Positions 7,249-62,986 of a DNA stretch of 64,000 nucleotides are shown here, one piece after another (within the stretch, counting starts at the first letter, position 1; every line of letters begins with the position of its first letter). Below the pieces are notes generated by a model that searched no databases, had not been told where the DNA came from, and saw only the letters and a program-made list of their open reading frames with translations. Both the position numbers and the translations under genes were made by a program. The stretch is from Octopus sinensis (lineage: Eukaryota), in assembly GCF_006345805.1 (NCBI RefSeq), contig NC_043008.1:27962001-28026000 (forward strand), written 5' to 3'.

Positions 7249-7445
7249 CATCCAAAAATACCTTAGGAATGAGAACCCAGGTTCGAAATTTCTCCAAGCC
7301 ACCTGACGAAGGCTGGATGGTATATCAGCCGAAAAGTTGTGTTAACAAGAAACAACATGAGGACAAATATCCGTCGAATGTAAATAATGAAAATAATGTA
7401 AATAATATACATAATTCCTCATTTCTTCTATATAGAACTGTATGC
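7249..7445 (+). mobile_element. HHR-bearing repeat family 1, copy 1
   Basis: Collinear with 41790-41970 and 45510-45660. Confidence 0.85.
7300..7341 (+). ncRNA. Minimal type I hammerhead ribozyme (family 1; helix III CG>AG lesion)
   Basis: cac-CTGACGA-a-GGCTG..CAGCC-GAAA-ag-TT-gtg. Confidence 0.7.
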
Positions 7446-15639: not shown

Positions 15640-17285
15640 TATTTTGTATGGATGACTTAAAACTCTATGGTAAAGACGATAATGAATCTGAAGGCCTATT
15701 GCGCACTGTGAAAGCATTCAGTGATGACATCGGGATGGAGTTTGGGCTTGAGAAGTGTGCCAAGGCCACTTTCCAGGAAGGGAAAGTGAAGACAACAAAT
15801 TCAGTCGTGTTAGATGTTGACACAGTCATAAGAGAGTTGAGCAAGAACAAACCTACAAATATTTAGGAATAAATGAAGGCTCTGGTATTCAGCATGCAAG
15901 CATGAAAGAGAAGATCAGGAAGGAATGTTATCGGAGAGTTCGAGCAATCCTGAAATCTGAACTAAATGCACGTAACAAGTTGTTAGCTATAAATTCCTTA
16001 GCAGTTTCATTTGTTACTTATAGCTACGATGTGTTGAACTAGAATATGAGTGAAGTAAAGAAAATAGATAGGAAAATACGCAAGCTACTGAGTTGTAATA
16101 GAATGCACAACCCAAAGGCAGACGTAGATCGCCTTTATCTTCCCAGAGCCCAAGGAGGTCAAGGCCTGATCCAGTTTGAACTAGCTTAAAAACAACTACA
16201 ATTGGACTGGCCAAATATCTTGAAATAACGAATGACTGGATGCTAAATCTCGTGGAAAATCACGAAAGAAGCTTCATTCTATCATAAAGGAAAGCAAAAA
16301 ATTTGCTATTGATCTCGTGCAGGATACCCAAACTGAACAATCCGAGGGAAGTACGGCAACTATTGCTGCAAAGAAGGTGAAAATAATGGCAACGAAAAAG
16401 AGCACAAGCAATTGGCTGATAGGTGGGAGGAGAAACCTCTACACGGCAAGTATGTGGTCCGTAGCAAACAAGCTGATGTTAACCAGAAGCAAACCCATCC
16501 AGGCAGCTCAAGATCAAAGACTATTAACCCGGAACTACCAGGCCAATGTGATGAAAAATGGAGCAGACCCAAAATGCCGATTCTGCAACGACATGATTGA
16601 AACAGTGGACGACCTAATCTCTGGATGTAAAGTTTTAGCACCAGTAGAGTATAAATTAAGACATGACAGAGTTGGCCAATATCTACACTGGCTAATAAGT
16701 CGGCATTACAATATCAAAACTAAAGCTGTAACTGAAGGAGAAAATGTTACAATTCTGTGGGACTTTCCAGTACATACAGACCGAACAATCAAAGCCAACA
16801 AACCGGATATTTTTGTGAAAGACCAAAACAATAAAGTTTGCTTATTGATCGACATGACCATCCCCTGTGATCATAATATCTCAGCGAAAGAATTTGACAA
16901 GCTCAGAATATATAATAACCTGCTCATTGAAATTGAGAAAATGTGGCATCTCAAGGCGGTTACAATACCAGTGATCGTAGGAGCACTTGGAATGATCAAG
17001 AAGTGAACCGAAAATTATATGAGAATGATCCCTGGCTTACCATCCCTGCAAGATGTGCAAAAGGTTGTCTTAACTGGAACATCACAGGTATTGAGAAGAG
17101 CATTGTCGATGTGAGAACTACGATTACCCATGTAATTTAATTTACCTCTTTTCCTATAAAAAAAATGAACGCACTAGTGAGTTTAGCTTAATGGCCTACC
17201 AATGTATACCATGAGTTTCTTTGTCCTAGGAGTCGGGAACACACTCGGCAAGAAACGGAAGCAAATTTAAAAGAAGAAGAAAAAC
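15640..17285 (+). mobile_element. 5'-truncated R4/Dong-type LINE (RT C-half, Zn knuckle, REL endonuclease)
   Basis: YMDDLKLY..FSDDIGMEFGLEKCA; CRFC..ETVDDLISGC; RHD; ILWDFPVHTDRTIKANKPDI..LIDMTIP..K..Y; IPVIVGALG. Flanked by (TAA)-rich tracts on both sides. Confidence 0.95.
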
Positions 17286-17287
17286 CC

Positions 17288-17354
17288 ATAAATAATAATA
17301 ATAATAATAATAATATAATAATAATAATTAATAATAATAATTAATAATAATAAT

Positions 17355-17401
<47 letters not shown>

Positions 17402-17414
17402 TAATAATAATAAT

Positions 17415-17505
<91 letters not shown>

Positions 17506-17523
17506 GTAATAATAATAATAATA
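17288..17523. repeat. (TAA)n microsatellite
   Basis: Direct inspection. Confidence 0.95.
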
Positions 17524-18298
17524 AGCTCAGGACTCAAAGCAGAGACGGAGGGATTTTTAATTGCACCACAAGACCAAAGTATCCTCGCAAGAAATTAGCA
17601 ACACCATATAATGAAAAGAAACATAAGAATAACTGCGGAATATGTGGAGATGGACAAGAAACAATAAATCATATTATCTCTGACTGCCCAGTCCTGGCTA
17701 AGAAGGAATATATTCAGAGACACGACAGAGTCGGGACCTATATACACTGGAAGTTATGCCAACGTTATGGAATAACAACAGAAAAAAGATGGTATATTCA
17801 CACGCCAGAAAATGTCACAGAAAACGAGAAAGCAACCATACTCTGGGATATGCCAATACACACAGATAGAGAAATTAAGGCCAACAGGCCAGATATAGTT
17901 GTCAGGGATCATGAAGAAAAAATGCTTTCTAATTGATGTATCAAAACCAGCAGATGACAACGGGTCTCTAAATGAAATGGAGAAACTTTCAAAATACAAA
18001 GACCTGGAAATAGAGGTAACGCAAATGTGGAATCTAAAAACAGAAACAATTCCTATCATAGTAGGTGCATCAGGTATGATGAAAAAAACTCAGACAAATA
18101 CATAACAAAACACCAGGACTTACAAACATATGTAACATACAGAAAATTGCACTACTGGGCTCCCCACATATCCAACGCAAAACGCTTTCAATACAGTAAC
18201 TATCAGAACATCATAACAAATCACAGCACATACCCAAGACATACAGAGCTGCGCTCGGTCGTGAAGTGAAAGCACGCTATAAAAATAAAACTATTGAA
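17524..18298 (+). mobile_element. Short 3' fragment of a second R4/Dong family
   Basis: SGLKAETEGFLIAPQDQ, ETINHIISDC, RHDRVG, ILWDMPIHTDREIKANRPDIV, LIDVS..EKLSKYKDLEIE..IPIIVGA. Embedded in (TAA)n. Confidence 0.92.
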
Positions 18299-22169: not shown

Positions 22170-23400
22170 TTACACCAATTATTATTTATCAACTCAATGC
22201 AAATAAACTGCGTCCCATCTGACAGCTGGTTCTGCTTCCAATGTTGTATAGTATTGCCATTGATATGCAAACGTTACGTAAAATATGCATCATATTTGGT
22301 AATAAAGCCGATCTGAAATAAGGAGTATCACCAGAGTGAAGACTAAACCAAAGTAGCAATTGGTGGATTGATTCGATGTTCAGGTTAGATTGGATAGATA
22401 CATAATAAAATATAAAAATACAAGAAATTATAACGCGGCAAGAGGTTTTAGTCGGAGGAGAGATGTAGATACAGTAAGGTTTCATATTAGTCATAATAAT
22501 TTACAAAAGCTGTGTTTGTAATATTAATTAATAGTATTACTCATAATAAATTGTTAACAGGTTAAATGTATTTTCAGTTATTTACTAGTAGGTGGTTAAG
22601 CCTTTCGACGTGTTGTCCAAATTGTGATAGGCGAAGGTCCAACGTTCGAAGTAACTGGTCAGTTGAAATTTAAGAACAAATCACCAGCTATTAAGACCGT
22701 TATACAGGGTAAGATAAATAAATGAAAAGGCAGGTGGTATTTGTTGTAAGAGTCCCCAAGAAGCTTAAAACAGTAAATGTTAGATTAAAAAATAATATTA
22801 TGGAATACATATTACAAGAGGAGGAAGCACTTCGTACATTTAGGAACTAAGACAATTAGGTTTGGAAATGGTTGAACAGTTTATTAAAAGGAGTATGAAA
22901 TTACTAAAAACAATGAAACTGATTTATACCGTAGGAAAGATATGGAAATAACAATTATAATATATATTGTATTGCTATATTAATACATACATAGCTACAT
23001 GCATATGCCAGTTTAAACAAATAAATCTCCCAATGCAAGTATTAATACACATAATAACAATAATAACAATATTAATAGCACGGAGATAAAAGCTACCCGC
23101 AGAACAAACATCAAGCAAATACATACCTAAAAGGGGCTGTGGGGTGTTAAGTTAGTATTAAAGTGTTGAATAAATACATATTTAATTATGAGGAGGCGGG
23201 AAGTGAAATGTGTAAGTCCATTGGGGGTCTTCATTAATTAGAAGTAGACCTATGCTGACTTAGAGTGCTCTAGAATAAACTAAAGTGAAACAAGCAAACA
23301 ATGAGTATGCGATGTAAAGTATGTTGCAAATTAGAGACGAATTCATTCGTTATTATGTAACAAAAAAGAAACGCCACTTGTGCATCGATGACATTTTTTC
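22170..23400 (-). pseudogene. Decayed PLE fragment (RT N-terminal region and 5' region)
   Basis: KPYCIYISPPTKT..SNLN..LLLWF resembles the PLE RT 'CRLINP.KS..NQW....WF' block. 23200-23360 is an inverted homologue of 23886-24040. Confidence 0.5.
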
Positions 23401-23829
23401 CATTTAAAGTCTAGATTACTACTACTCAACGCCAGGGAAGAGCGAAATATACCTGTCTGCACAAGGATAAATTTGCTTTCTCTATGTATGAAAAAAGTGT
23501 AGGCATCTAATAGGCCTTTTCTCCTTTAACTGTACCCATAATTCTTCCCCAGGGAAATAGTATAATTCGATTCTAAATGTTGCCAAAATCTACTTCTAAT
23601 TAAGTTTGGTTAATAGATTTACTTATCAAGGTTCCTTTTAGGTAACCCAACAATATACCCTTACAATGATCTATCTGAGTTTTAAGATGTTTCTCCCATG
23701 TATAGCAACTAAATGATATTATATTATATTGCATCATTTTACTACCCCTCAGTATAACCTTAACACATTCTTATAACCATATAATACAAGTTACCTTAAC
23801 TCTTAAAATAAATTTCGTCTACAGAGGGC

Positions 23830-25230
23830 ACAAGTATCCATTCCCCTACCATACAACCCCCCCTTTATCATACCTGGACCCTCGACCATAATAAGGAATA
23901 AATTTGTCTGTATTTGTAACATACTTTACCATTGCATGCTCATTGTTTGCTTGTCTCATTTTAGTTTATTCTAGACCACTCTAAGTCAGCATTGGTCTAC
24001 TTCTATTTTATAAAGACCCATCTACTGGATTTACACATTTAACTACAACCAGTCCATAAACCTAGTTCTCCCGAACAAGGCAATAATATTCATTAAGCGC
24101 AACTCCGACCCCACTAGGGAAGAAATATGTATGAATTTAGCACTAGGAACACTTTAATAGAATACGGAGGAAAACTCTGAGCGCCATCAGACAAAGTTGA
24201 CTCATTCGACATAACAATGGGGTCTAGCATCTCTGCGCAAGTCAGGTATAGTAGGCATAAACTTATTATCGCAAATCTTATTATCGCTGAGCTTAGCGTG
24301 GGGATTATAAACATACGACATTTGTTCACTATACAGAAAAGTAGCAACGTAGAAATAGAAATTTGCCAAAAAAACTTTTCAAATTCCTTAATATATTTTG
24401 ATCGGAAACTGAATAGAAAAAACACTAAATGGTAAAATTCTTTGACATAAAGTTTAACCTTACCGAAACGTTCTATAAGCTAAATGAAAACTTTAAATTT
24501 TTGAGCCGAGGATCCAACCATACGTAACATATGTGAAGCATGCGAAGAAGCGTGGGTAATAGAATATCCACAACTGAACGGATATTCGATATGCATGCCG
24601 AGTATTTCAACTCAGCACTCAGAGTATAATATATAGCGAAAATAAGACAGAAAGTGTACGATGCCCAGGGGACATTATTAATAGGAGGGATAATCATATG
24701 CGTAACCGCAGCGCACCGGAACCTAGAAAAATAGAAATTATGACAGAGACCAAAAGAGAAAGAAAAAAACATGACACTAAAAGAGATAGATATAAAACAG
24801 AATCCACGAAACTACGATGATAGTAATAATGATAACAAAGCAGGAGAATGCACTATGAAACCAAAGCGATATATTAAAAGAGATGAAAAATAACTTATGA
24901 AATTATTTGGCTTAACCCAATCTGCAATTCACAACTGAAATCCAAAATAGGTCAAAGATTTTTCGCAGCATTCGATAAGCACTCACCGAAATACCCAGAT
25001 AACTAGATTAACCTTCATGCTAGAATAGAAATGGATGGATATTCCTCTGTTTTACATCCGCTAATGATATATCCCATGAAGACATTAGTCAATGAAAATG
25101 TCCACGGATACTACAGACGGCACTGTAATCATTCCAGGAATACAGATCGTGATCTTAAGAGAAATGTGATATCAGGATTCGCGCGTAGCGATGCATAAAA
25201 TGCTTATAAATTCCATCCAAGAATTATTGT
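23830..25230 (+). pseudogene. Decayed PLE, RT core
   Basis: SFDITMGSSISAQV..GINLL and frameshifted VKFFDIKFNL motifs. Same type as the RT at 51680-51960. Confidence 0.7.
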
Positions 25231-25237
25231 TATATTA

Positions 25238-27618
<2,381 letters not shown>

Positions 27619-27689
27619 ATATATATATATATATATTATATATATATATGTATATATATATTTTCATATATATACATACATATGCATAT

Positions 27690-27872
27690 AAATTCAACAA
27701 CAATTGAGGAATGACCTTAATAGGCCATTCGACCCACTAGAAAGAGCAGCCAGGACTCAAACCGCCAAGTAGTAGTAATCCAGAAATTAGAGAAAATTTA
27801 AAAACATTTACCCTAAATCATCTTTAGACAATGCATTGTTTCGGTGTTTTTAATGGCAAACCAGCTTAATAG
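27690..27872 (-). mobile_element. Truncated relative of the HHR element at 62104-62944
   Basis: taataggccattc..ccactagaaa..cagcca..agagaaaatttaaaaacatttaccct is shared. Retains the HHR 3' half GAAA-CAATGCATTG-TC (rc 27827-27842). Flanked by (TA)n. Confidence 0.8.
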
Positions 27873-37855: not shown

Positions 37856-37859
<4 letters not shown>

Positions 37860-38174
37860 GAAATGAAGAAAATGCTGACAAAATAATTTAAGTAAGGGAG
37901 AGTGTGTTTAATTAGGTGAAAGTTCTTATTACCGGTTGCGCATTTGTTATGCTTATCAAAAGATATTTTTTTAAGCGAGATAGAGTTCCTTTCTGATAGA
38001 TTTTTTTCTCTTATCAGATAATAGAAAAAAATCTATCAGAAAGGAACTCTATCTCTCTCAAAAATATCTTTTGATAAGCATAACAAATGCGCAACCGGTA
38101 AAAATAACTTTCCCCTAATTATATACACTCTCCCTTACTTAAATTATTTTGTCAGCATTTTCTTCATTTCCTTT
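37856..38174. repeat. Near-perfect ~154-bp-arm palindrome between (TA)n tracts, with a variant HHR-like motif in each arm
   Basis: 37856-38009 is the reverse complement of 38023-38174, with a 13-nt loop. Confidence 0.9.
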
Positions 38175-41541: not shown

Positions 41542-41970
41542 AGGTCACTGACTGGAATCGAACAGGGAATCTTGGGGTTAGTAGTCCGCTCTCTTAACCA
41601 TATGCCTGCGGGCAATTATAGATTGAAATTTAGGGCTTATAAATTATCCTATCCTTCCTTAATACCGTTCCCATATGTTGTTCATATCTGCACTCGGCCT
41701 GCTTAAGAGGTTGTAGGATGAAGTTAAAATAATAGAGAACACCACTGGAAAGTACAAAAACTAAAAGAAGCAGCACATATACTAGGACACAACATCGAAA
41801 TATGCCTTTAAATTGAGATCGCATGTTCAAAATTTCCCCAATACACCTGATGAAAGCTGGAGGGTATATTAGCCGAAACGTTGTGTTAACAATAAACAAG
41901 ATTAGGACAAATATCCGTCAAATGTATATAATCTACTTAATTGCTCATCTATTTAATATAGAACTGTATG
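41542..41970 (+). mobile_element. HHR family 1, copy 2, preceded by a minus-strand tRNA-like head
   Basis: 41542-41600 is the rc of the tRNA head at 45363-45429. 41790-41970 is collinear with 7249-7445. Confidence 0.8.
41843..41886 (+). ncRNA. Minimal type I hammerhead ribozyme (family 1)
   Basis: acac-CTGATGA-a-aGCTG..TAGCc-GAAA-CG-TT-gtgt. Confidence 0.75.
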
Positions 41971-44297: not shown

Positions 44298-44400
44298 AAC
44301 CTGATGAGTGGCTATATATATATCGAAGTGATTTTACTACTGCTAGTAATATATTTTACTATTATCATTTCTTAAATATAGCCACGAAACACGTGTGGTT
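44298..44400 (+). ncRNA. Type I hammerhead motif with long helix II (GUG at cleavage site, probably inactivated)
   Basis: aac-CTGATGA-GTGGCTATAT..ATATAGCCAC-GAAA-CACGTG-TG-gtt, with a perfect 10-bp helix II. Confidence 0.75.
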
Positions 44401-45469: not shown

Positions 45470-45512
<43 letters not shown>

Positions 45513-45665
45513 TCAAAAAATACCTTAGGAATGAGAACCCAGATTTGAAATTTCCCCAAGACACCTGATGAAGGCTGGAGGGTATATCAGCCAAAACGTT
45601 GTGTTAAGAACAAACATGATGAGTACGAATATCTCTCAAAAGTAAATAATATAAATAATATATAT
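45355..45665 (+). mobile_element. tRNA-headed SINE-like element: Pol III head, (TAA)n, hammerhead tail (family 1, copy 3)
   Basis: A box TGGCGTAGTGG 45363-45373, B box GAGTTCGATTCC 45406-45417, (TAA)n 45431-45510, HHR 45560-45605. Confidence 0.85.
45560..45605 (+). ncRNA. Minimal type I hammerhead ribozyme (family 1; GAAA>AAAA lesion)
   Basis: gacac-CTGATGA-a-GGCTG..CAGCC-aAAA-CG-TT-gtgtt. Confidence 0.7.
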
Positions 45666-47502
45666 GATGTCATTATAACTACTATCCTGGTTCGTAGTCA
45701 AGTGATTTTCATGATAAGGAACAGATGATAGTCAGATGGGGTCAAATAATAGGATTTGGGAAGGCGATCAACAAGTTCAAATTCAAAGTCACGCACACTA
45801 AGTAAGGAAAGCAAGGACTTAAGTGCTGAAGCATTGCCTTGAAAAAACAAGATCCCTTTCGTCAGTTTTCTATGGCGTTTAATCTCGACAACCTTTTGCA
45901 ACTGCCTCAGCAAAGCAGCATAGCATTCTCTAGAGACGGAATGGCTCGTTTCATGATAACCATTAGCAACAATGCCTTTTACATCCCCCAAAATGAGATC
46001 ATCGCCTTCCCTGCAGACGAAATGACCGTAGCCTTCTTGGGAGCAGTGAGGAGGGCTGATTACACTGTATGGATTTTGTCCTTGTCTCTGGCTCAAAGTT
46101 ATGTGTCCTACACTCATTCTGGGTTAGGAAATGTTTAGAGCAACTAGGCTGGATGTGCCTCAAGTAATACCAGAAATATTAAAATATATACTTAAAGCAA
46201 AATTCTTTGTATGTTACAAAAATGTAATGTGGAATTCTTTTTGTTTTGCCGCGGTATCCTCTGGTGTTGAAATTCTATCTAGCATCTTTCATAGTCAAGG
46301 GAATATGTACCAGTGGAACACTGGAATCTTCTAAGGTTTTCCTACTCTTTTTATACTCCTGTGATAAAACTAGAAATAATTATTGTTATTATAGTAGTAT
46401 TTTGTTCTCTGTAGTTACTGTACGAATTACATTATCTTACAGTAGTTCAGATTTTATAGAATTACCTATGGTATATCATTCATCAGTAATTGTAAACTAT
46501 GTTTACAAAAGAATGTGCAATTATGATAAATCACATGCTATGCTTCATTAATAATGGTATTATTAATTTTTATAGAAAAGTAAATGATATAATGAAATAA
46601 ATTGTTTGTAATATATATTTATTAGTCTTAGAGATTATTAGCTTCTACTGATAGTTCCTCTTCATAGGTTACCAGTATGAGGTAGATAATAATTGAATAG
46701 TCATTGTTAAGTGTACAATATAATCCTTTTTTATTAATTACAGTGAAATGATAAACGTGTTTTAGCATCATCGTAGAGACTAAACTCATTATTAATTACC
46801 ATTTTGCACAAACATTTGAAGCATCTGAACAAATAGCCATTACTTAAAATTGAGAAATCAATGCTTTAGAATAGCCTTGGAATTCATATGTTGTTTATAA
46901 TGAAGCTGTTAAAATATTGAAGATTATGATATGAGATGCTATAGATGTCAGGGATTATTACTAGAAATATGAGCCACGAAATTAGAATTTGCTTGGAGAT
47001 ATACCTAAATTTATATATGTGAGTACCTGCATTATGTAAATATATTCTGGGAACGCTACTGAATATAGGAAAATTGCCGGTATGTAATATTGTGTGTAAC
47101 GCTATATAATTATGCATATCCTTGAGTGTATAGTAGGGTAAGAGTGAATAAATATATTGAACCAAAATTTCATACTCCCGAGGAGTAGGAAGTTGTATCA
47201 CTCTCAGTAAAATATGAAAGTACGTGATAATGTTGATGAAACAATTAAATCGTCGTGTATTTAATACTTGGTCATACGGATATTTTGTTATTTATTCAAT
47301 AGCATAGACTCGCGCACAGACCCACATACGTACACACACATAAGCACACACACATTCGCATATATATATACGCAAAGGCGTATGTACTGAAACGAGATAT
47401 CATAGGTATTTAGATTAAAATATGTTTACGCATGAACATAAATTTATCTAGTCCACATATACATGCATATATATGTGCACTAGATAAATATATGTATATA
47501 TG

Positions 47503-47654: not shown

Positions 47655-47820
47655 TGTGCATGGCCTAGGGGTTAGGTTGTTGGACTCACGGCTTTGCGGT
47701 CATGATTTCAATTCCTTGACTGGGTTGCACGGTGTGTTCTTGAGCAAAATCCTTTGTCTCACGTTCCTCAGCGATCACTTGGACACTTGACAGGTGACAC
47801 ACAGTGGACCTGTTCAGACA
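47652..47820 (+). mobile_element. tRNA-derived SINE 5' part (family D)
   Basis: A-box-like tggcctaggggttagg, B-box-like atttcaattcc, then gtgttcttgagcaaaa. Confidence 0.6.
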
Positions 47821-49286
<1,466 letters not shown>

Positions 49287-49289
49287 AAG

Positions 49290-52200
49290 AGTTAGGGAAT
49301 GGAGTAGTTAAGATCCCAGTCACATATGTTTCATAGCAAACGGAACCTCAGAGATGCTAAATATCCAAGTGAGGTGTATACCGAAAACTACTCTTCAGGC
49401 TAACGATACTTTGTTTAAAAGAAAATTTACAATGATGCAAGAAAATACATGATAACACAAAGAAGATTCAATCAGTATGTATAGAGAGTATAGTATGAGA
49501 TGTGAATATATATGTAGGGAGAAATAAAAATTAAAAGAAGGAAGAATAAAAAAACAAAGGAATGAGTGGAGTGTGGAATTTAAGCAAGTTCGTTTGACCG
49601 CTCGTATTCAATGGGGCAGTTATGGCAGAATTCCAGAAATTTGCAAGGGGGGTGTTATTTTTTAAATATGATAATGTGGAGAGAAGAAGTGGGGGTATAT
49701 TTTTGATTAAGAGGGAGAAAAAAGTGTGCATGAAGAATGCAAGAGAGAATGAGGAATTTAAATCCGGTTATTTGACCGATAGAGCTGTTTTGGCCGAATC
49801 ACAGAAATTGGCAAGGGGAATGTTATTAAAAAACAGATAATAATATGGCAGGAAGAGGGTGGGGAAATATTTCTGGTCAAGAGTGAAACAACATAAATAT
49901 GCATGAAGAAAGCAAGAGAGAACGGTGAAGAATAGTGGTAGGTACTACTGGTTTTTACCTGAAGAATGTATATTGTGTGCGGTGAGCGTGTTTACAGTAT
50001 AACGTTATAAACATGTGGTTGGCATATGTATTTATAAGTTTATGAAGGGAGGTGAGTAGGAGGAGGAGACAGACTAAATGAGATTATTAAAAATTTAAAC
50101 GGTAAGGAATATGCTCAATTGTATGTAAATTATAATAAGGAATTGAAAGGAAGGTATATTGTAGGTTTAATACAGATTGGTAGTGAGGGTAGATAAGAGG
50201 GAAAATGTATGCAAGTTAGGCAAAGTAGGATGGGGTTGCTGGTATTTCTATTTTGAGAATATATTTAGTAATCGATGATTGCAGGTAAAAATTATACTGC
50301 GGCGTTCAATAAGACAATCCGTGGATTGCAAAATATCTAAGACTTCGTCTATGCAGAGATCACGCCTGTCATTATAGTTGTAGTATGGCTTGGCATGGGT
50401 GACTATGGGCCACTAGAGAGTGTAATCTGTTGAATTAATATTCAGTTTATTGATAAACTGAGATAAAGATGTACTGTTGGATTCTGTTTAAACTTGAAAC
50501 TGGAGAAGCCCTTGTTCACTCTAACTTTGAAGGTGGTGCTACATGAGATAATATATATGTAGTTACATTTGGCAATCGATACTGTGCACTTACAAACAAT
50601 GTTGTTTGCGACAAAGCGGTTATCTAAAGGACGGGACATGAAGCGTCTGAAGTTGCAAAAGATTATAAGGGATGATTCGGAGGGACTTGTACGGGGATTG
50701 TTATTTAGAGAGGAACTGGTGTTTGGTGTGTTATTATTGCTGGCGATAAAGTTGGTACTTTTAACGAGTACATGGTGGTGTTGTGAGGTTGTATAATATG
50801 GTAGCTATTGTGTCCGAAGTTATCTTGTAGATTTTGCTCTATATTTGAAAGCGGTATAGTTAGGCGTTGTGCTAAATTTAAGGATCGTGTGTTTGTAGTG
50901 GAAATAATCGAACATATACTTGTCGTTATGAGGTTTAATGTTGTTAAGGCGGGGTAAATTGCTGTTTTGGGTTTAATTGCATGGCGCTGGAGATTATGTA
51001 GAGCTAATTTATTAGAGTGGAGCTCAGCTGGTTGTGGATTTCTGAATTTCTTGTTGCTACGAATATTGGATTATGTCAATTTTATTGGCTGGCAGTTAAA
51101 TATTTTTCTCAGAGAGCTAGACTGAGGAAATTGGTTTTTGAGTAAGTCGAAGAAGAGTCTGAATATTAATGGCAAAGAGGGGTGGAACAAGACAACTTCC
51201 CGGGTTCTCTTTCCTCTAATGCGACTAGGGGGGTTAACTGGGCGAGGATAGTGTGTTGGATGTGTACGGTGGTGTATGTTTCGTTGAGGTTGGATGTATA
51301 TAGGATTTTGGAGTCATCTGGTTGGAGGGTTTTTGTTAGGCCGTCTGTTACTCTGAAATTTAGACGGGTATTGGAGAGGTTGGATAAGGGTGATATGTTT
51401 ACTATATAGGGGTGCACAAGTGGTTTTATTTACAGGTTTAGTGGAGAGAGGAATATCTCACATGGGGATGTATTCGATTGAGATTTTATATCCTGAACTT
51501 TGATGGGCACTATTGATCAAATAAAACTTTAATCGCAGGTACTGAGGAAATCTGGTTGGAAACGCTTTTTCTAATAGATTTTAAGACAAAGGAGAGTGGT
51601 TGAAGAGGAAGTTCATGCAGATGAGTTTTTACCCCAGGTTTGTGCTATGGGTAAATAGTTTGGTTTTGTAAGTTCAGGATTTAGTCCAACAAATTAGCAG
51701 TTTTAATGTTGTAACAGAAAGAGATGCTTAGGTCGATGTTTTTTGTTTTAATACTTCTTTTTCTTGTATGTTCGATTATCCGATTGCGAGAATTTTGGAT
51801 GGCGAACAGAGCGTCATCTGTGTATAAACCATCGGAGATGCTAGGAAAGTGTTCATGGAGACAGTTAAGAATGTAATAACCTGCAAGTTTCGTAATTTGA
51901 GCAGAATCTCTGGTCCACATAGTGATATCGAAAAAGTTGGGTGTATCCTTGCGTGCCCTGGATATCCCACCGAACAGTATTATATTTCGGCAGGCTGCTA
52001 AACTTATATCAATATTAGCATCAACTGGTAAGGAAAAATACAGAGGTAAGTATGTAAATGACAATAAGGAATTAAAGGGAAGATACACTGTGTGTTTAAA
52101 ATATGGTAGTCGCGAGGGTAGATTGGAGGGAAGTTAGTGGAAAGGTAGTGTTCGTTATTATTGATGGCTTTCAGATTGGTATTTGCTAAAGAGTTGAAGG

Positions 52201-52400
52201 TGGTGTTGTGCGGTTGTGGGATATGATAATTATTGTGCCCAGTGTCGTTCTCTATTTTTTGCAAAAGTTATTGTTGGGCGTTGTGGTAAATTTAAGGATA
52301 GGGTGTTAGTAGTGGGATTATAGTTGTTGTTATGACGGCTAATGTTCTTAAGGGGGTCAATTGGTTTTTTGGTTTATTTCTATGGAGTTGTTGTGTTATC
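49290..52400 (-). mobile_element. Near full-length decayed PLE (RT, C-terminal GIY-YIG, 3' HHR), possibly Naiad-like
   Basis: FFDITMWTRDSAQITKLAGYYIL..GLYTDDAL..NLLD (RT); FCNFRR..RPLDNR..NNIVCKCTV..YIYI..STTFKVR (CxC-linked GIY-YIG); HHR at 49317-49402. Confidence 0.85.
49317..49402 (-). ncRNA. Degenerate hammerhead in PLE 3' terminal repeat
   Basis: Minus strand tagc-CTGAAGA-GTAG..CTAT-GAAA-CATATG-TG-actg. Confidence 0.65.
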
Positions 52401-56584: not shown

Positions 56585-56924
56585 ATATATATATATCTAT
56601 ATATATGTATGTATATATAAAAAAAAGCACGTTTATCAATTTGTTTTGCAAGATACCTGCTGTGAAATCATGCGTTGAAATAGTGTTATTGTTTTTCGGG
56701 ACGGTTTTTTTGTTGTTTTTTCTTGGTAACTAAACACGTGCACGGTGTATGTGTTCTCTCGTTTCTTCATTTTATAAAACAATATTCACACATGTATATT
56801 ATCCGGAAATCTTTCGTCACACATCTATAATTTCTTCAGCGACACTTTTCATTTGCATGTGTGCTCATGCTCCACTTACTCCATTCTGTTCTTCTAAGAT
56901 GTGCATCCACATTTGTGAGCTATT

Positions 56925-57663
56925 CCAGGTGATAGGTTAGCATCTTCATACACTGGGTATTCTGTCATCAGAGACAAGGTGTGCATGTATGACAAGTCTA
57001 GACAGGGAATTCACAGTTTATAAAGGGATAAAATAGTAGATAAAATAGTAGATAAAATAATACAAACAGGAGAAGAAAGCTCATCGTCTTCCAGAGTGTA
57101 TGGAAGTTCGTCCGTACCTCTCTAAAGGTATAAGTTCCAGGTAATTCCAAGCGGTATTTTTAATCTTGCGTTCATGTTGAAGGAATATATCAAGTGGTTA
57201 GCTGGTAATGAAACGGTCCACGTGGGTATATAGAGTGAGAAAGATAGACATCATGATAGACAGATATCGACAGAATAGAAGAGAGAGGAGAAAGAGAGAA
57301 ACTTGATCTACTCCTTCAACATAAACGCAACATACAAAGTGTTGCCAGAATACTGCCTCGATTTACCTGGGATTAAACTTAAGGACCATTACCCTCACGG
57401 AAGTACGGACCAATCTCCATACCCTCTGGAAGAAGATGAGTCATAGCATTTATCGTCTATGAATGATTTTATTCCTTTATAAACTGTGAATTCCCTGTCT
57501 AGAACTTTCTTAATATCCGATGATGGAATGACCAGTGTATGGAGATGCTAACCTATTATCTTGGATATCCCAGAAACAGCTGTAAGACAACAAATAATCA
57601 ATTAATTGCTTCTAATTCGCCTTATTCTGATGACTTGCGATACTCGTCCTGTCTTTTTCCTCT

Positions 57664-57665: not shown

Positions 57666-57757
<92 letters not shown>

Positions 57758-57916
57758 TTGTATAATATCAACATAACTTCACAGTCCCGTAGAGGGAATT
57801 ACACCACCGCTATATAGCCCTGGGAAGCATCGACGCTTCCTGTCGGCTTTGACACATTTCCTGTGTCCGTATATTCGCAGTGAGGAGGCAAGCACCACAC
57901 CAGCTAGGACTAGTAA

Positions 57917-57962
57917 CCTGAAGACATGCATGTTTCTGGGTCTTTCCCGTCATCAGTCCAGG
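57917..57962 (-). ncRNA. Type I hammerhead ribozyme, inverted copy
   Basis: Exact rc of 58229-58274. Confidence 0.85.
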
Positions 57963-58228
57963 GTAGCGAGTCCCGCTAGCGGTGATACTTGCCAAGCCTT
58001 CGCAAGCCCTATTCCTAGAGCTATATAGCGGTGATGTAATTCCCTCTAAGGGACTGTCCCGTTATGTTGACATTATACAACCACTCTGTCGCTCCACTAC
58101 CGCCCATGTCTCTATGAGTCATTTAGAAATTCAATATTTCTAATTACGGTGACCAGTGAATAGATTTCACTTTAAATATATATATTTGCGAAGGCTTGGC
58201 AAGTATCACCGCTAGTGTGACTCGCTAC

Positions 58229-58274
58229 CCTGGACTGATGACGGGAAAGACCCAGAAACATGCATGTCTTCAGG
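58229..58274 (+). ncRNA. Type I hammerhead ribozyme
   Basis: CCTGGA-CTGATGA-cGGG-aaaga-CCCa-GAAA-CATGCATG-TC-TTCAGG, with a GUC cleavage triplet. Confidence 0.85.
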
Positions 58275-59256
58275 TTGCTAGTCCTAGCTGGTGAGAGTGC
58301 TTGCCTCCTCATTGTAAATATACGGACACAGGTAATGTGTCAAAGCCGACAGAAAGCGTCGATGCTTCCTAGGGCTATATAGCGATGGTGTAATTCCCTC
58401 TACGTTAATTCCTGTCACGTTATATTGACATTATACAACCACTCTATCGCTCCACTACCGCTTATGTCTCTTTAGAAATTCAATATTCAATATTTCTAAT
58501 ATATATATACATTACGCGCGTAATGTCCGTGTATATATGCGGATATTCTGTTGTATGTATGTGTGTGTACGCGCGTGCGTGTGGGTGCGTGTGTGTTTAT
58601 GTACGTGTTTACACGCGAGTGCGTGTGTATGCTTATAGGCTTGGAGGCGTATATGTACGCGTGAATGTGGGTGTATATATCCATGATGATATGTATGTAC
58701 TAGAAGTCCATTTAATTCAAGGAACCAGATTAAATGCTCATCAGCTCTGATTTACAACGCATTAAGTCCCCAGACGAAACTGTTGATGTACTGACAATTC
58801 TACAACTAAATTTTATCAATCTCCTGACCACCATGCTTGGTCCATAACCTCTATACATCCTTATCTTTACATTCTTTTACACTTTTATCATGTTTTTATC
58901 AGGTTTTTTTACTTTTATTTCTATTTCTATTTTTACTTTATATTTCTTTATACCCCCTTTACATCTACTTACAACCCTTTATCCTCTACATTTTTATATT
59001 ATTCTATACTTACACTTTTTATACATTTTTTATCCCTCGTCCCGAACTCTCGCCCCTCCATCTTCACCTCTATATATGTATTTATTTATTTACATTACCT
59101 CAACATCCAATTTTCCTCATTCTACATTGAGAGAAGAAAGAGATGGACGCTTCAACTCTATGCTGCTACCGCATTATGTCGCACGTGAATGAGAGGATTT
59201 GCATCCCCAACCAAGAATTTTTGATGTAACACATGTCCTTGTGGAAGGTGTGGTAC

Positions 59257-59334
59257 GCGGCTGAAGAAGGCCACAGACATACATTATGCATTGTTATAAA
59301 TCTGTCTAATAAAGGCCCGAAACATATGTACCGC
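59257..59334 (+). ncRNA. Type I hammerhead ribozyme in a probable PLE 3' terminal region (58690-59370)
   Basis: GCGG-CTGAAGA-aGGCC..GGCCc-GAAA-CATATG-TA-CCGC, with a GUA triplet. Confidence 0.85.
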
Positions 59335-62073: not shown

Positions 62074-62334
62074 TTATATATATAATATATATATATATAT
62101 AATTTAATCAATATAGGGTGGTGAAAAAAATTTTTGTAGAATTCTTTTGCCACCAGCGGGCCCAGTGGGAAAAAATTAAATAGTCATAGACCATTTTTAA
62201 GTTCAACATCAACAATCAAGGAACGGCCATAATAGGCCATTCACCACTAGAAATAACAGCCAAAGCTTCAACCCCGCAAATAAAGATCAATTCCGTAAAC
62301 AGAGAAAATTTAAAAAAAACATTTACCCTGTAAT

Positions 62335-62437
62335 TTCTTGTACGATGCACCGTTTCGTCTGCTGTTTAATGGTAAACTAACCTGATTAAATTAAATCAAG
62401 CCAATCTTCCATAGGCCCTCAGATTCTTCAGCAAGAA
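62335..62437 (-). ncRNA. Type I hammerhead ribozyme, inverted copy
   Basis: Near-exact rc of 62718-62819. Confidence 0.85.
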
Positions 62438-62717
62438 ATAGCCAAGATTGTTGATGTTGAACTTAAAAATGGTCTATGACTATTTAATTTTTTCCACTGG
62501 GCCGCTGGTGGCAAAAAGAATTCTACAAAAATTTTTTTCACCACCCTATATTGATTAATTATGAATTTTCTGGTTAATTCCGTAATGGAATCGACGGCTT
62601 ATATTTATTTGCTGCCGATAAATTTGGCGCGAGTGCGACGATTTGAAAATTTTAGGTCAGATATTAACTTGGCAGGGTCGGAAATGCCTCGTGTAATATC
62701 TGTTCCGACTTGGCTAT

Positions 62718-62819
62718 TTCTTGCTGAAGAATCTGAGGGCCTATGGAAGATTGGCTTGATTTAATTTAATCAGGTTAGTTTACCATTAACAGCAGACGAA
62801 ACGGTGCATCGTACAAGAA
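62718..62819 (+). ncRNA. Type I hammerhead ribozyme with large helix II insertion
   Basis: TTCTTG-CTGAAGA-aTCTG..CAGAc-GAAA-CGGTGCATCG-TA-CAAGAA, with a perfect 6-bp helix I and a GUA triplet. Confidence 0.88.
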
Positions 62820-62940
62820 TTACAGGGTAAATGTTTTTTTAAATTTTCTCCTGTTTACGGAATTGATCTTTATTTGCGGTTGAAGCTTTGGCTGTTATTT
62901 CTAGTGGGTGAATGGCCTATTATGGCCGTTCCTTGATTGT

Positions 62941-62986
<46 letters not shown>

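Follow-up and report, generated by a model that had tools for sequence, protein, structure and literature searches.

The locus at 57668-58509 of the window, by which is meant the whole 64-kb stretch of Octopus sinensis DNA analysed here, raises the question of what kind of element leaves a hammerhead-bearing sequence in mirror image and in partial tandem between two microsatellites, and of which machinery placed it there. The answer, which is very probably correct, is one old insertion of a non-autonomous 354-nt retroelement carrying a hammerhead, that is, a non-LTR retrozyme living as a parasite of Penelope-like elements (PLEs), which would have been inserted in trans by a Penelope-like reverse transcriptase (RT) together with a GIY-YIG nuclease. 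The kind of element and the layout are both already known, and the locus adds a new example.

Read from left to right, the locus consists of (TA)28(GA)15, an inverted arm, a 6-nt filler, 1.38 direct units and (TA)5. The left target microsatellite, in which (TA)28 is followed by (GA)15, occupies 57668-57753, and its final bases overlap the end of the element. The inverted arm (57751-58005, minus strand) is a 5'-truncated copy, equivalent to 58186-58445, which stands head-to-head with the direct part and carries no tail. This inverted pair lies where the sequence-only reading had placed it: the reverse complement of 57751-58005, aligned with 58186-58445, is identical in 238 of 260 columns, and blastn gives 91.4% over 256 nt (E 5e-99). 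The figure of about a dozen differences between the arms was too low, as 19 events were counted (17 substitutions and 2 indels). Two features had also been overlooked, namely the filler with its palindrome at the join and a 55-nt one-sided tail. The filler (58006-58011) forms part of an 18-nt palindrome at 58005-58022, a putative mark of self-priming, in which 6 of 7 stem pairs form and which is built from the filler plus one shared base; the probability that a 7-nt match arises so near the join by chance is about 0.007.

The direct part, on the plus strand, measures 489 nt, equal to 1.38 units, and runs through the predicted cut site. It is made up of a full, circularly permuted 354-nt unit (58012-58365; 44% GC, without a long ORF and highly self-paired as a predicted circle) followed by the beginning of a second unit (58366-58500). 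The upstream partial unit at 58012-58144, which is 5'-truncated, pLTR-like and includes the tail, is repeated by 58366-58500 with 115 of 137 columns identical and a start-to-start distance of 354 nt. A terminal redundancy of about 130 nt had been proposed; the repeat at 354-nt spacing is present, but its nature is that of a partial tandem of 1.38 units. The segment from 58145 to 58185 (plus strand), between the tail and the long stem, has multi-copy depth and bridging pieces and belongs to the unit rather than to the host flank; in the predicted fold, its (AT)5 forms pairs with the region at about 58313-58322. The 55-nt tail of the right outer end (58446-58500, plus strand) is found at that end only and terminates in a hairpin, beside the right target microsatellite, (TA)5 at 58500-58509. 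The inverted arm ends at the equivalent of 58445, 55 nt before the right end, so that the locus has two outer ends, each joined to a microsatellite and separated by 55 nt on the unit. At the left end 4 nt are shared with the (GA)n tract, which at the start site agrees with the cDNA in 8 of 10 nt, and at the right end 1-2 nt are shared with the flank. TA repeats of at least 4 units make up 4.1% of the window, in which no further copies of the family were found.

When the unit is folded as a circle, the predicted energy is -104.7 kcal/mol (z -4.3), a stability reached by 0 of 100 shuffles, with 67% of the bases paired. A search of the direct part in six frames found no long ORF, and the RT and GIY-YIG ORF expected of an autonomous PLE was not found inside the element. 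A 50-codon frame in the inverted arm was dismissed, being broken in the direct arm.

Part of the stretch occurs in 20 of the 24 listed public sequencing runs, under four organism codes and with at most 27% of the words in each. Four runs were mapped at 80% likeness on 58012-58505, and the contigs fitting the unit numbered 1110, 1540, 1742 and 154; the 354-nt unit is a high-copy family. The run with 154 contigs (X17) may be RNA and is not counted as expression, and none of the listed runs in which the stretch occurs is recorded as RNA. The segment 58145-58185 is multi-copy and bridged by pieces at 58050-58171, 58115-58240, 58121-58241 and 58147-58273, which together with 58229-58377 and 58349-58460 tile a closed unit, each piece coming from a different copy, the longest listed one measuring 149 nt and none spanning the stretch. 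The unit of 354 nt closed by this tiling agrees with the earlier proposal of a size in the range of retrozyme monomers.

The ends of the family can be followed in the same contigs. Among the best 24 of 435 loose ends, 10 contigs of run X1 depart from the unit at 58145, which corresponds to the right end, and continue into sequences that differ from one another (median 255 nt, agreement 0.51), and 3 contigs of X17 leave at 58094 into a TC/TA repeat, like the inverted arm. Of 8 listed joints, 5 connect opposite strands, each at a different place and with one contig per run, and joints called at less than 95% likeness can come from repeats. Contigs of single-copy depth account for the ends at 58094, for the pieces bridging the junction and for the inversion joints, and some of them may represent the present locus in a relative. 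Two further break-offs, at 58334 and 58399, were rejected as element ends, as they lie beside private changes of this copy. The locus itself has 1.38 units, and two hammerhead-bearing units in tandem were not seen among the short family pieces, which measure up to 149 nt among those listed. Motif scans gave 0 matches in viral contigs and 0 in two metagenome scans, and searches that included cephalopod-directed ones, covering the main texts of a mostly open-access literature, found no paper tied to this family.

These pieces also bear on an improbable reading in which the locus would be made of truncated stumps of an autonomous PLE, two 3' ends in tandem and one inverted, and the 354-nt element would not exist independently. 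Truncation at the 5' end is frequent among PLE insertions, and opposite-strand hammerhead pairs 100-700 bp apart are read as truncated PLEs in the available text of PMC4209133. In all four runs the summed depth over 58335-58402 is far above that of the hammerhead part, as if this portion were common to another family, possibly a commoner related one, although summed contig depth differs from copy number. Against such stumps stand the diverged contigs that bridge the tail-to-stem junction (58050-58171, 58115-58240 and 58121-58241) across a multi-copy spacer, the folding of the unit as a closed and very stable circle (z -4.3), and a direct part free of long ORFs in all six frames.

The state of the copies indicates how the locus has aged. 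Within 58186-58445 there are 28 listed differences from the family, and 17 of them represent the majority state in each of the three large runs. At these 17 sites, the minority letter stands in both arms in 7 cases, the family letter in the inverted arm in 8 and a third state in 2, and the segment that is present three times carries 4, 4 and 5 private changes, counted by eye. The sharing of letters and the private changes would fit one source template followed by independent decay, while the shared minority letters could instead mark a subfamily specific to this species, an alternative left by the coverage of at most 27% of the words in any run. A test for gene conversion around the centre gave no support (10 events in the inner 180 nt versus 9 in the outer 80, P 0.12).

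The same counts bear out the earlier argument that the divergence speaks against an assembly artefact. A chimeric or fold-back read could in principle yield a mirrored locus, PLE structures are known to trouble assemblers according to the available text of PMC8557442, and each listed run covers less than half of the words. Such an origin is nevertheless scarcely credible, given that the arms differ by 19 events, that each of the three diverged copies has private changes and that the inverted arm has the family letter at 8 of the 17 sites where the direct arm departs from it.

The hammerhead of the direct arm lies at 58229-58274 (plus strand), with a GUC site ending at 58268 and a predicted cut after it, and that of the inverted arm at 57917-57962 (minus strand), with a predicted cut after 57923 on that strand, mirroring 58268. 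Both are of type I. The direct-arm motif has a 6-bp helix I, a 3-bp helix II whose base shows a C-A mismatch and a short palindromic helix III; helix II contains 3 G-C pairs and one additional base on each side, C on the 5' and A on the 3' side. When the window was scanned on both strands with a descriptor, 5 full type I matches were returned, 2 of which are these arms. Rfam gave 0 matches over the whole window at the gathering score, and 9 matches over 57700-58900 up to E 5, none of them a hammerhead; the 9 are miRNA and snoRNA models starting at or beyond 58459, over the simple-sequence right flank. Because Rfam scores no hammerhead here, the ribozyme call consists of the descriptor match and the folding. 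The 46-mer alone has a hammerhead fold of -6.4 kcal/mol against a minimum-energy fold of -9.8 kcal/mol, and within its long stem the values are -50.6 and -55.0 kcal/mol, which places the monomer hammerhead 3.4 to 4.4 kcal/mol above the minimum. When two 46-mers are co-folded, the active dimeric hammerhead is the minimum-energy form (-29.5 kcal/mol). On these models, the hammerheads of the locus qualify as predicted type I ribozymes.

As had been reported, the 46-nt hammerhead with its GUC site is identical in both arms, and it lies inside an identical run of 58 nt. When 19 events were placed at random over 260 columns (200,000 draws), the probability of none falling in a fixed 46 nt was 0.021, and that of an identical run of at least 58 anywhere in the arms was 0.13. 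The count of arm events, 0 in 46 nt within the hammerhead versus 19 in 214 outside, gives P 0.03 in a test chosen post hoc. For family differences the corresponding counts among the best 40 of 93 are 1 in 46 versus 39 in 448 (P 0.16), and the sole hammerhead change among these 40 falls in loop II. With P ranging from 0.02 to 0.13, arm identity was not accepted as proof of selection on the hammerhead, and the identical motif is weak evidence of selection at this locus. The family alignment that had been suggested as a source of covariation gives no clear signal: of 17 stem variants, judged using the window's own partner letter, 9 are not paired, 4 preserve the pairing and 4 disrupt it.

By its composition the unit resembles the non-LTR retrozymes of animals. 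It combines a hammerhead core with 354 nt of non-coding sequence at 44% GC, a multi-copy family and a self-paired predicted circle, where the range taken for a retrozyme unit is about 150-450 nt with GC below 50% and without the layout of LTR retrozymes. In the available text of PMC7229834, units measure 350-390 nt in mussel and 330-350 nt in axolotl, and the features in common with the locus are the non-coding nature, a GC content below 50%, a type I hammerhead with a short helix III, a highly self-paired predicted circle, high copy number and head-to-tail continuity. Axolotl HHR_Amex2, from the same source, also has a mismatch at the base of helix II, which is U-U there and C-A here. Li and others, in the main text of their preprint, have argued that non-LTR retrozymes represent non-autonomous derivatives of PLEs (Li et al., 2026, bioRxiv 10.64898/2026.07.22.740005). 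Their rule for an active element is two consecutive complete units, whereas the locus has 1.38 units with one hammerhead per strand and falls outside it. To the retrozymes described, the locus adds an inverted copy, a tail and microsatellite targets: a term search of the available text of PMC7229834 did not return "inverted", and in the preprint's main text neither "tail" nor "target site" occurs and "inverted" appears in the reference list only.

The layout, for its part, resembles PLE insertions. According to the available text of PMC8557442, these comprise partial tandems with an adjacent inverted 5'-truncated copy, have a tail of 30-40 bp that is often at one end only, and are biased towards microsatellites. 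Head-to-head PLE joins carry palindromes, one of them 18 bp long, which were read as self-priming, and pLTRs act in trans, as stated in the part of PMC3846280 consulted. Inverted pLTRs and short extensions are treated as ordinary PLE traits in sections of a curation guide (PMC8969392). The locus displays the pLTR partial tandem, the inverted truncated copy with a join palindrome, the one-sided tail, an AT-rich microsatellite target, no discernible target duplication and a hammerhead within the repeat, each of which has its counterpart in the PLE passages available. It differs in having no RT/GIY-YIG ORF and in a tail of 55-57 nt, compared with the 30-40 nt cited there. By this analogy, the mirror-plus-overlap layout is the described PLE insertion pattern and was already known.

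The likeness extends to the ribozyme. The minimal hammerheads of PLEs, in the available text of PMC4209133, likewise have an extra nucleotide after position 9, a palindromic helix III and loop 3 and a predicted dimer, and metazoan type I motifs are described there as dimeric hammerheads. Helix II is 7-8 bp in those motifs and 3 bp here, helix I is 6 bp here, and the G10.1-C11.1 pair, reported there as highly conserved, is not formed at this locus. Non-autonomous Chlamys elements such as MRC1 offer a further parallel in the accessible portions of PMC8557442, being non-coding PLE dependants with pLTRs and head-to-tail copies, but they occur in green algae and most lack canonical hammerheads.

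A helper PLE was sought among the ORFs of the window. For 9 of its 24 long ORFs compared with Pfam, 2 weak RT-related matches below the cut-off and no GIY-YIG were obtained. A broken frame at 51681-52133 (minus strand), accompanied by repeats at 50121-50984 and 52050-52385, has a YTDD motif that we take to be RT-like; this candidate RT relic had no Pfam or Atlas match and no match among 464 longer candidates. Fragments resembling ORFs of non-LTR retrotransposons were seen at 16236-17936 and 47706-49150, with weak zf-RVT and RVT_1 matches below the curated cut-off.

Some 4 kb from the locus, a second head-to-head hammerhead element lies at 62104-62945 between TA tracts, with arms 97% alike, a long helix II and an A-C mismatch at the base of that helix; a diverged partial relative of it is found at 27689-27861. 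The 354-nt family is unrelated to this 62 kb element, as had been claimed, with no sequence similarity (best E 2.9). An identical architecture had been claimed as well, and in its detail this does not hold, the join of the 62 kb element having no filler and its inverted arm crossing the unit junction, of which the direct arm holds about 10 nt. The head-to-head layout between microsatellites is common to both, but the proposal of a shared integration mechanism is not supported in the form given, as the architecture is not a new mechanism and corresponds to the known PLE pattern.

This neighbour is one of the observations that tell against a very unlikely reading, in which a single retrozyme or SINE-like copy was rearranged at the DNA level after insertion, by fold-back replication or repair, and the inversion would be uninformative on mobility. 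The hairpin filler at the join is what DNA fold-back events leave, and the minority letters common to both arms would also be compatible with them. The inverted arm, however, stops cleanly in a microsatellite where family contigs also end, other inversion joints exist within the family, the head-to-head layout recurs 4 kb away in an unrelated family, and palindromic joins are typical of PLE insertions in the available text of PMC3846280.

For a PLE-driven insertion of the 354-nt retroelement, the following course may be proposed. The source locus would make an RNA longer than one unit, either as an uncut tandem transcript or as a circle read for more than one round. Because the 489-nt direct part crosses the cut site intact, the template would be RNA longer than one unit, and therefore not a ribozyme-excised linear monomer. 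The PLE protein would nick the (TA)n/(GA)n tract and prime reverse transcription inside the RNA at the end of the tail (58500); the cDNA would stop at 58012, fold back over 6-7 nt and join a sense copy starting at 58186, and a second start site (58445) would set the left end, with the help of pairing to (GA)n. The three copies would then decay independently. The inverted arm could arise by self-primed second-strand synthesis or by a second priming on the other target strand; the join palindrome favours self-priming, while the fixed left end, together with the 62 kb element nearby, points to second priming. In the parts of PMC11167929 available, the PLE protein cuts and extends both target strands, and its RT starts inside the RNA at two sites bounding the tail, uncut RNA being the principal substrate.

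This copy itself is probably inert, because it has one hammerhead per strand and a read-through RNA of the locus would pair all 46 bases of the hammerhead with its own antisense arm; on this model it is an unlikely source of further copies. A bolder reading, which is conceivable and is offered tentatively, sees in the family a retrozyme that is still alive as circular RNA. A PLE RT would copy its circles for more than one round, with priming from the two nicked strands of the target at a pair of fixed sites some 55 nt from each other. If this reading were true, such loci would document directly in the genome that retrozymes are moved by PLE machinery, the 354-nt unit would be a minimal substrate for the origin of the PLE tail and inverted copy, and the hammerhead, provided that it works, would add a small variant in which C-A stands at the base of the 3-bp helix II throughout the family.

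The mobility of retrozymes has so far been argued from co-occurrence and pLTR homology. At this locus the marks of PLE insertion (inverted copy, join palindrome, tail and microsatellite target) are seen directly on an ORF-less 354-nt unit. With its many copies and two apparent fixed ends, the family offers a natural data set and an in vitro substrate for distinguishing self-priming from two-ended priming, and it is equally suited to asking whether circles or uncut multimers serve as template.

Other repeats of the window deserve mention in their own right. A near-perfect palindrome of 317 nt (37857-38173, 93%), with almost no spacer, lies between two (TA)n tracts and is possibly a fold-back insertion; hammerhead scans found no core in it. 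Three copies of another family, 80-85% alike, occur at 7251-7406, 41791-41941 and 45509-45668, two with a PLE-type minimal hammerhead core (7303 and 41847) and two following AAT repeats. Just to the left of the locus is an old inverted pair, 56912-57195 and 57301-57576, which is 66% alike, and near 57500-57590 a decayed hammerhead-like stretch was recognised by eye. Another repeat forms a nested arrangement at 23202-25825, where its partial copies, 86-93% alike, stand in direct and inverted orientation. Hammerhead-core motifs of other families are found at 44301, 49398 (minus strand), 59257-59334 and 59629, and the window is dense in such relics.
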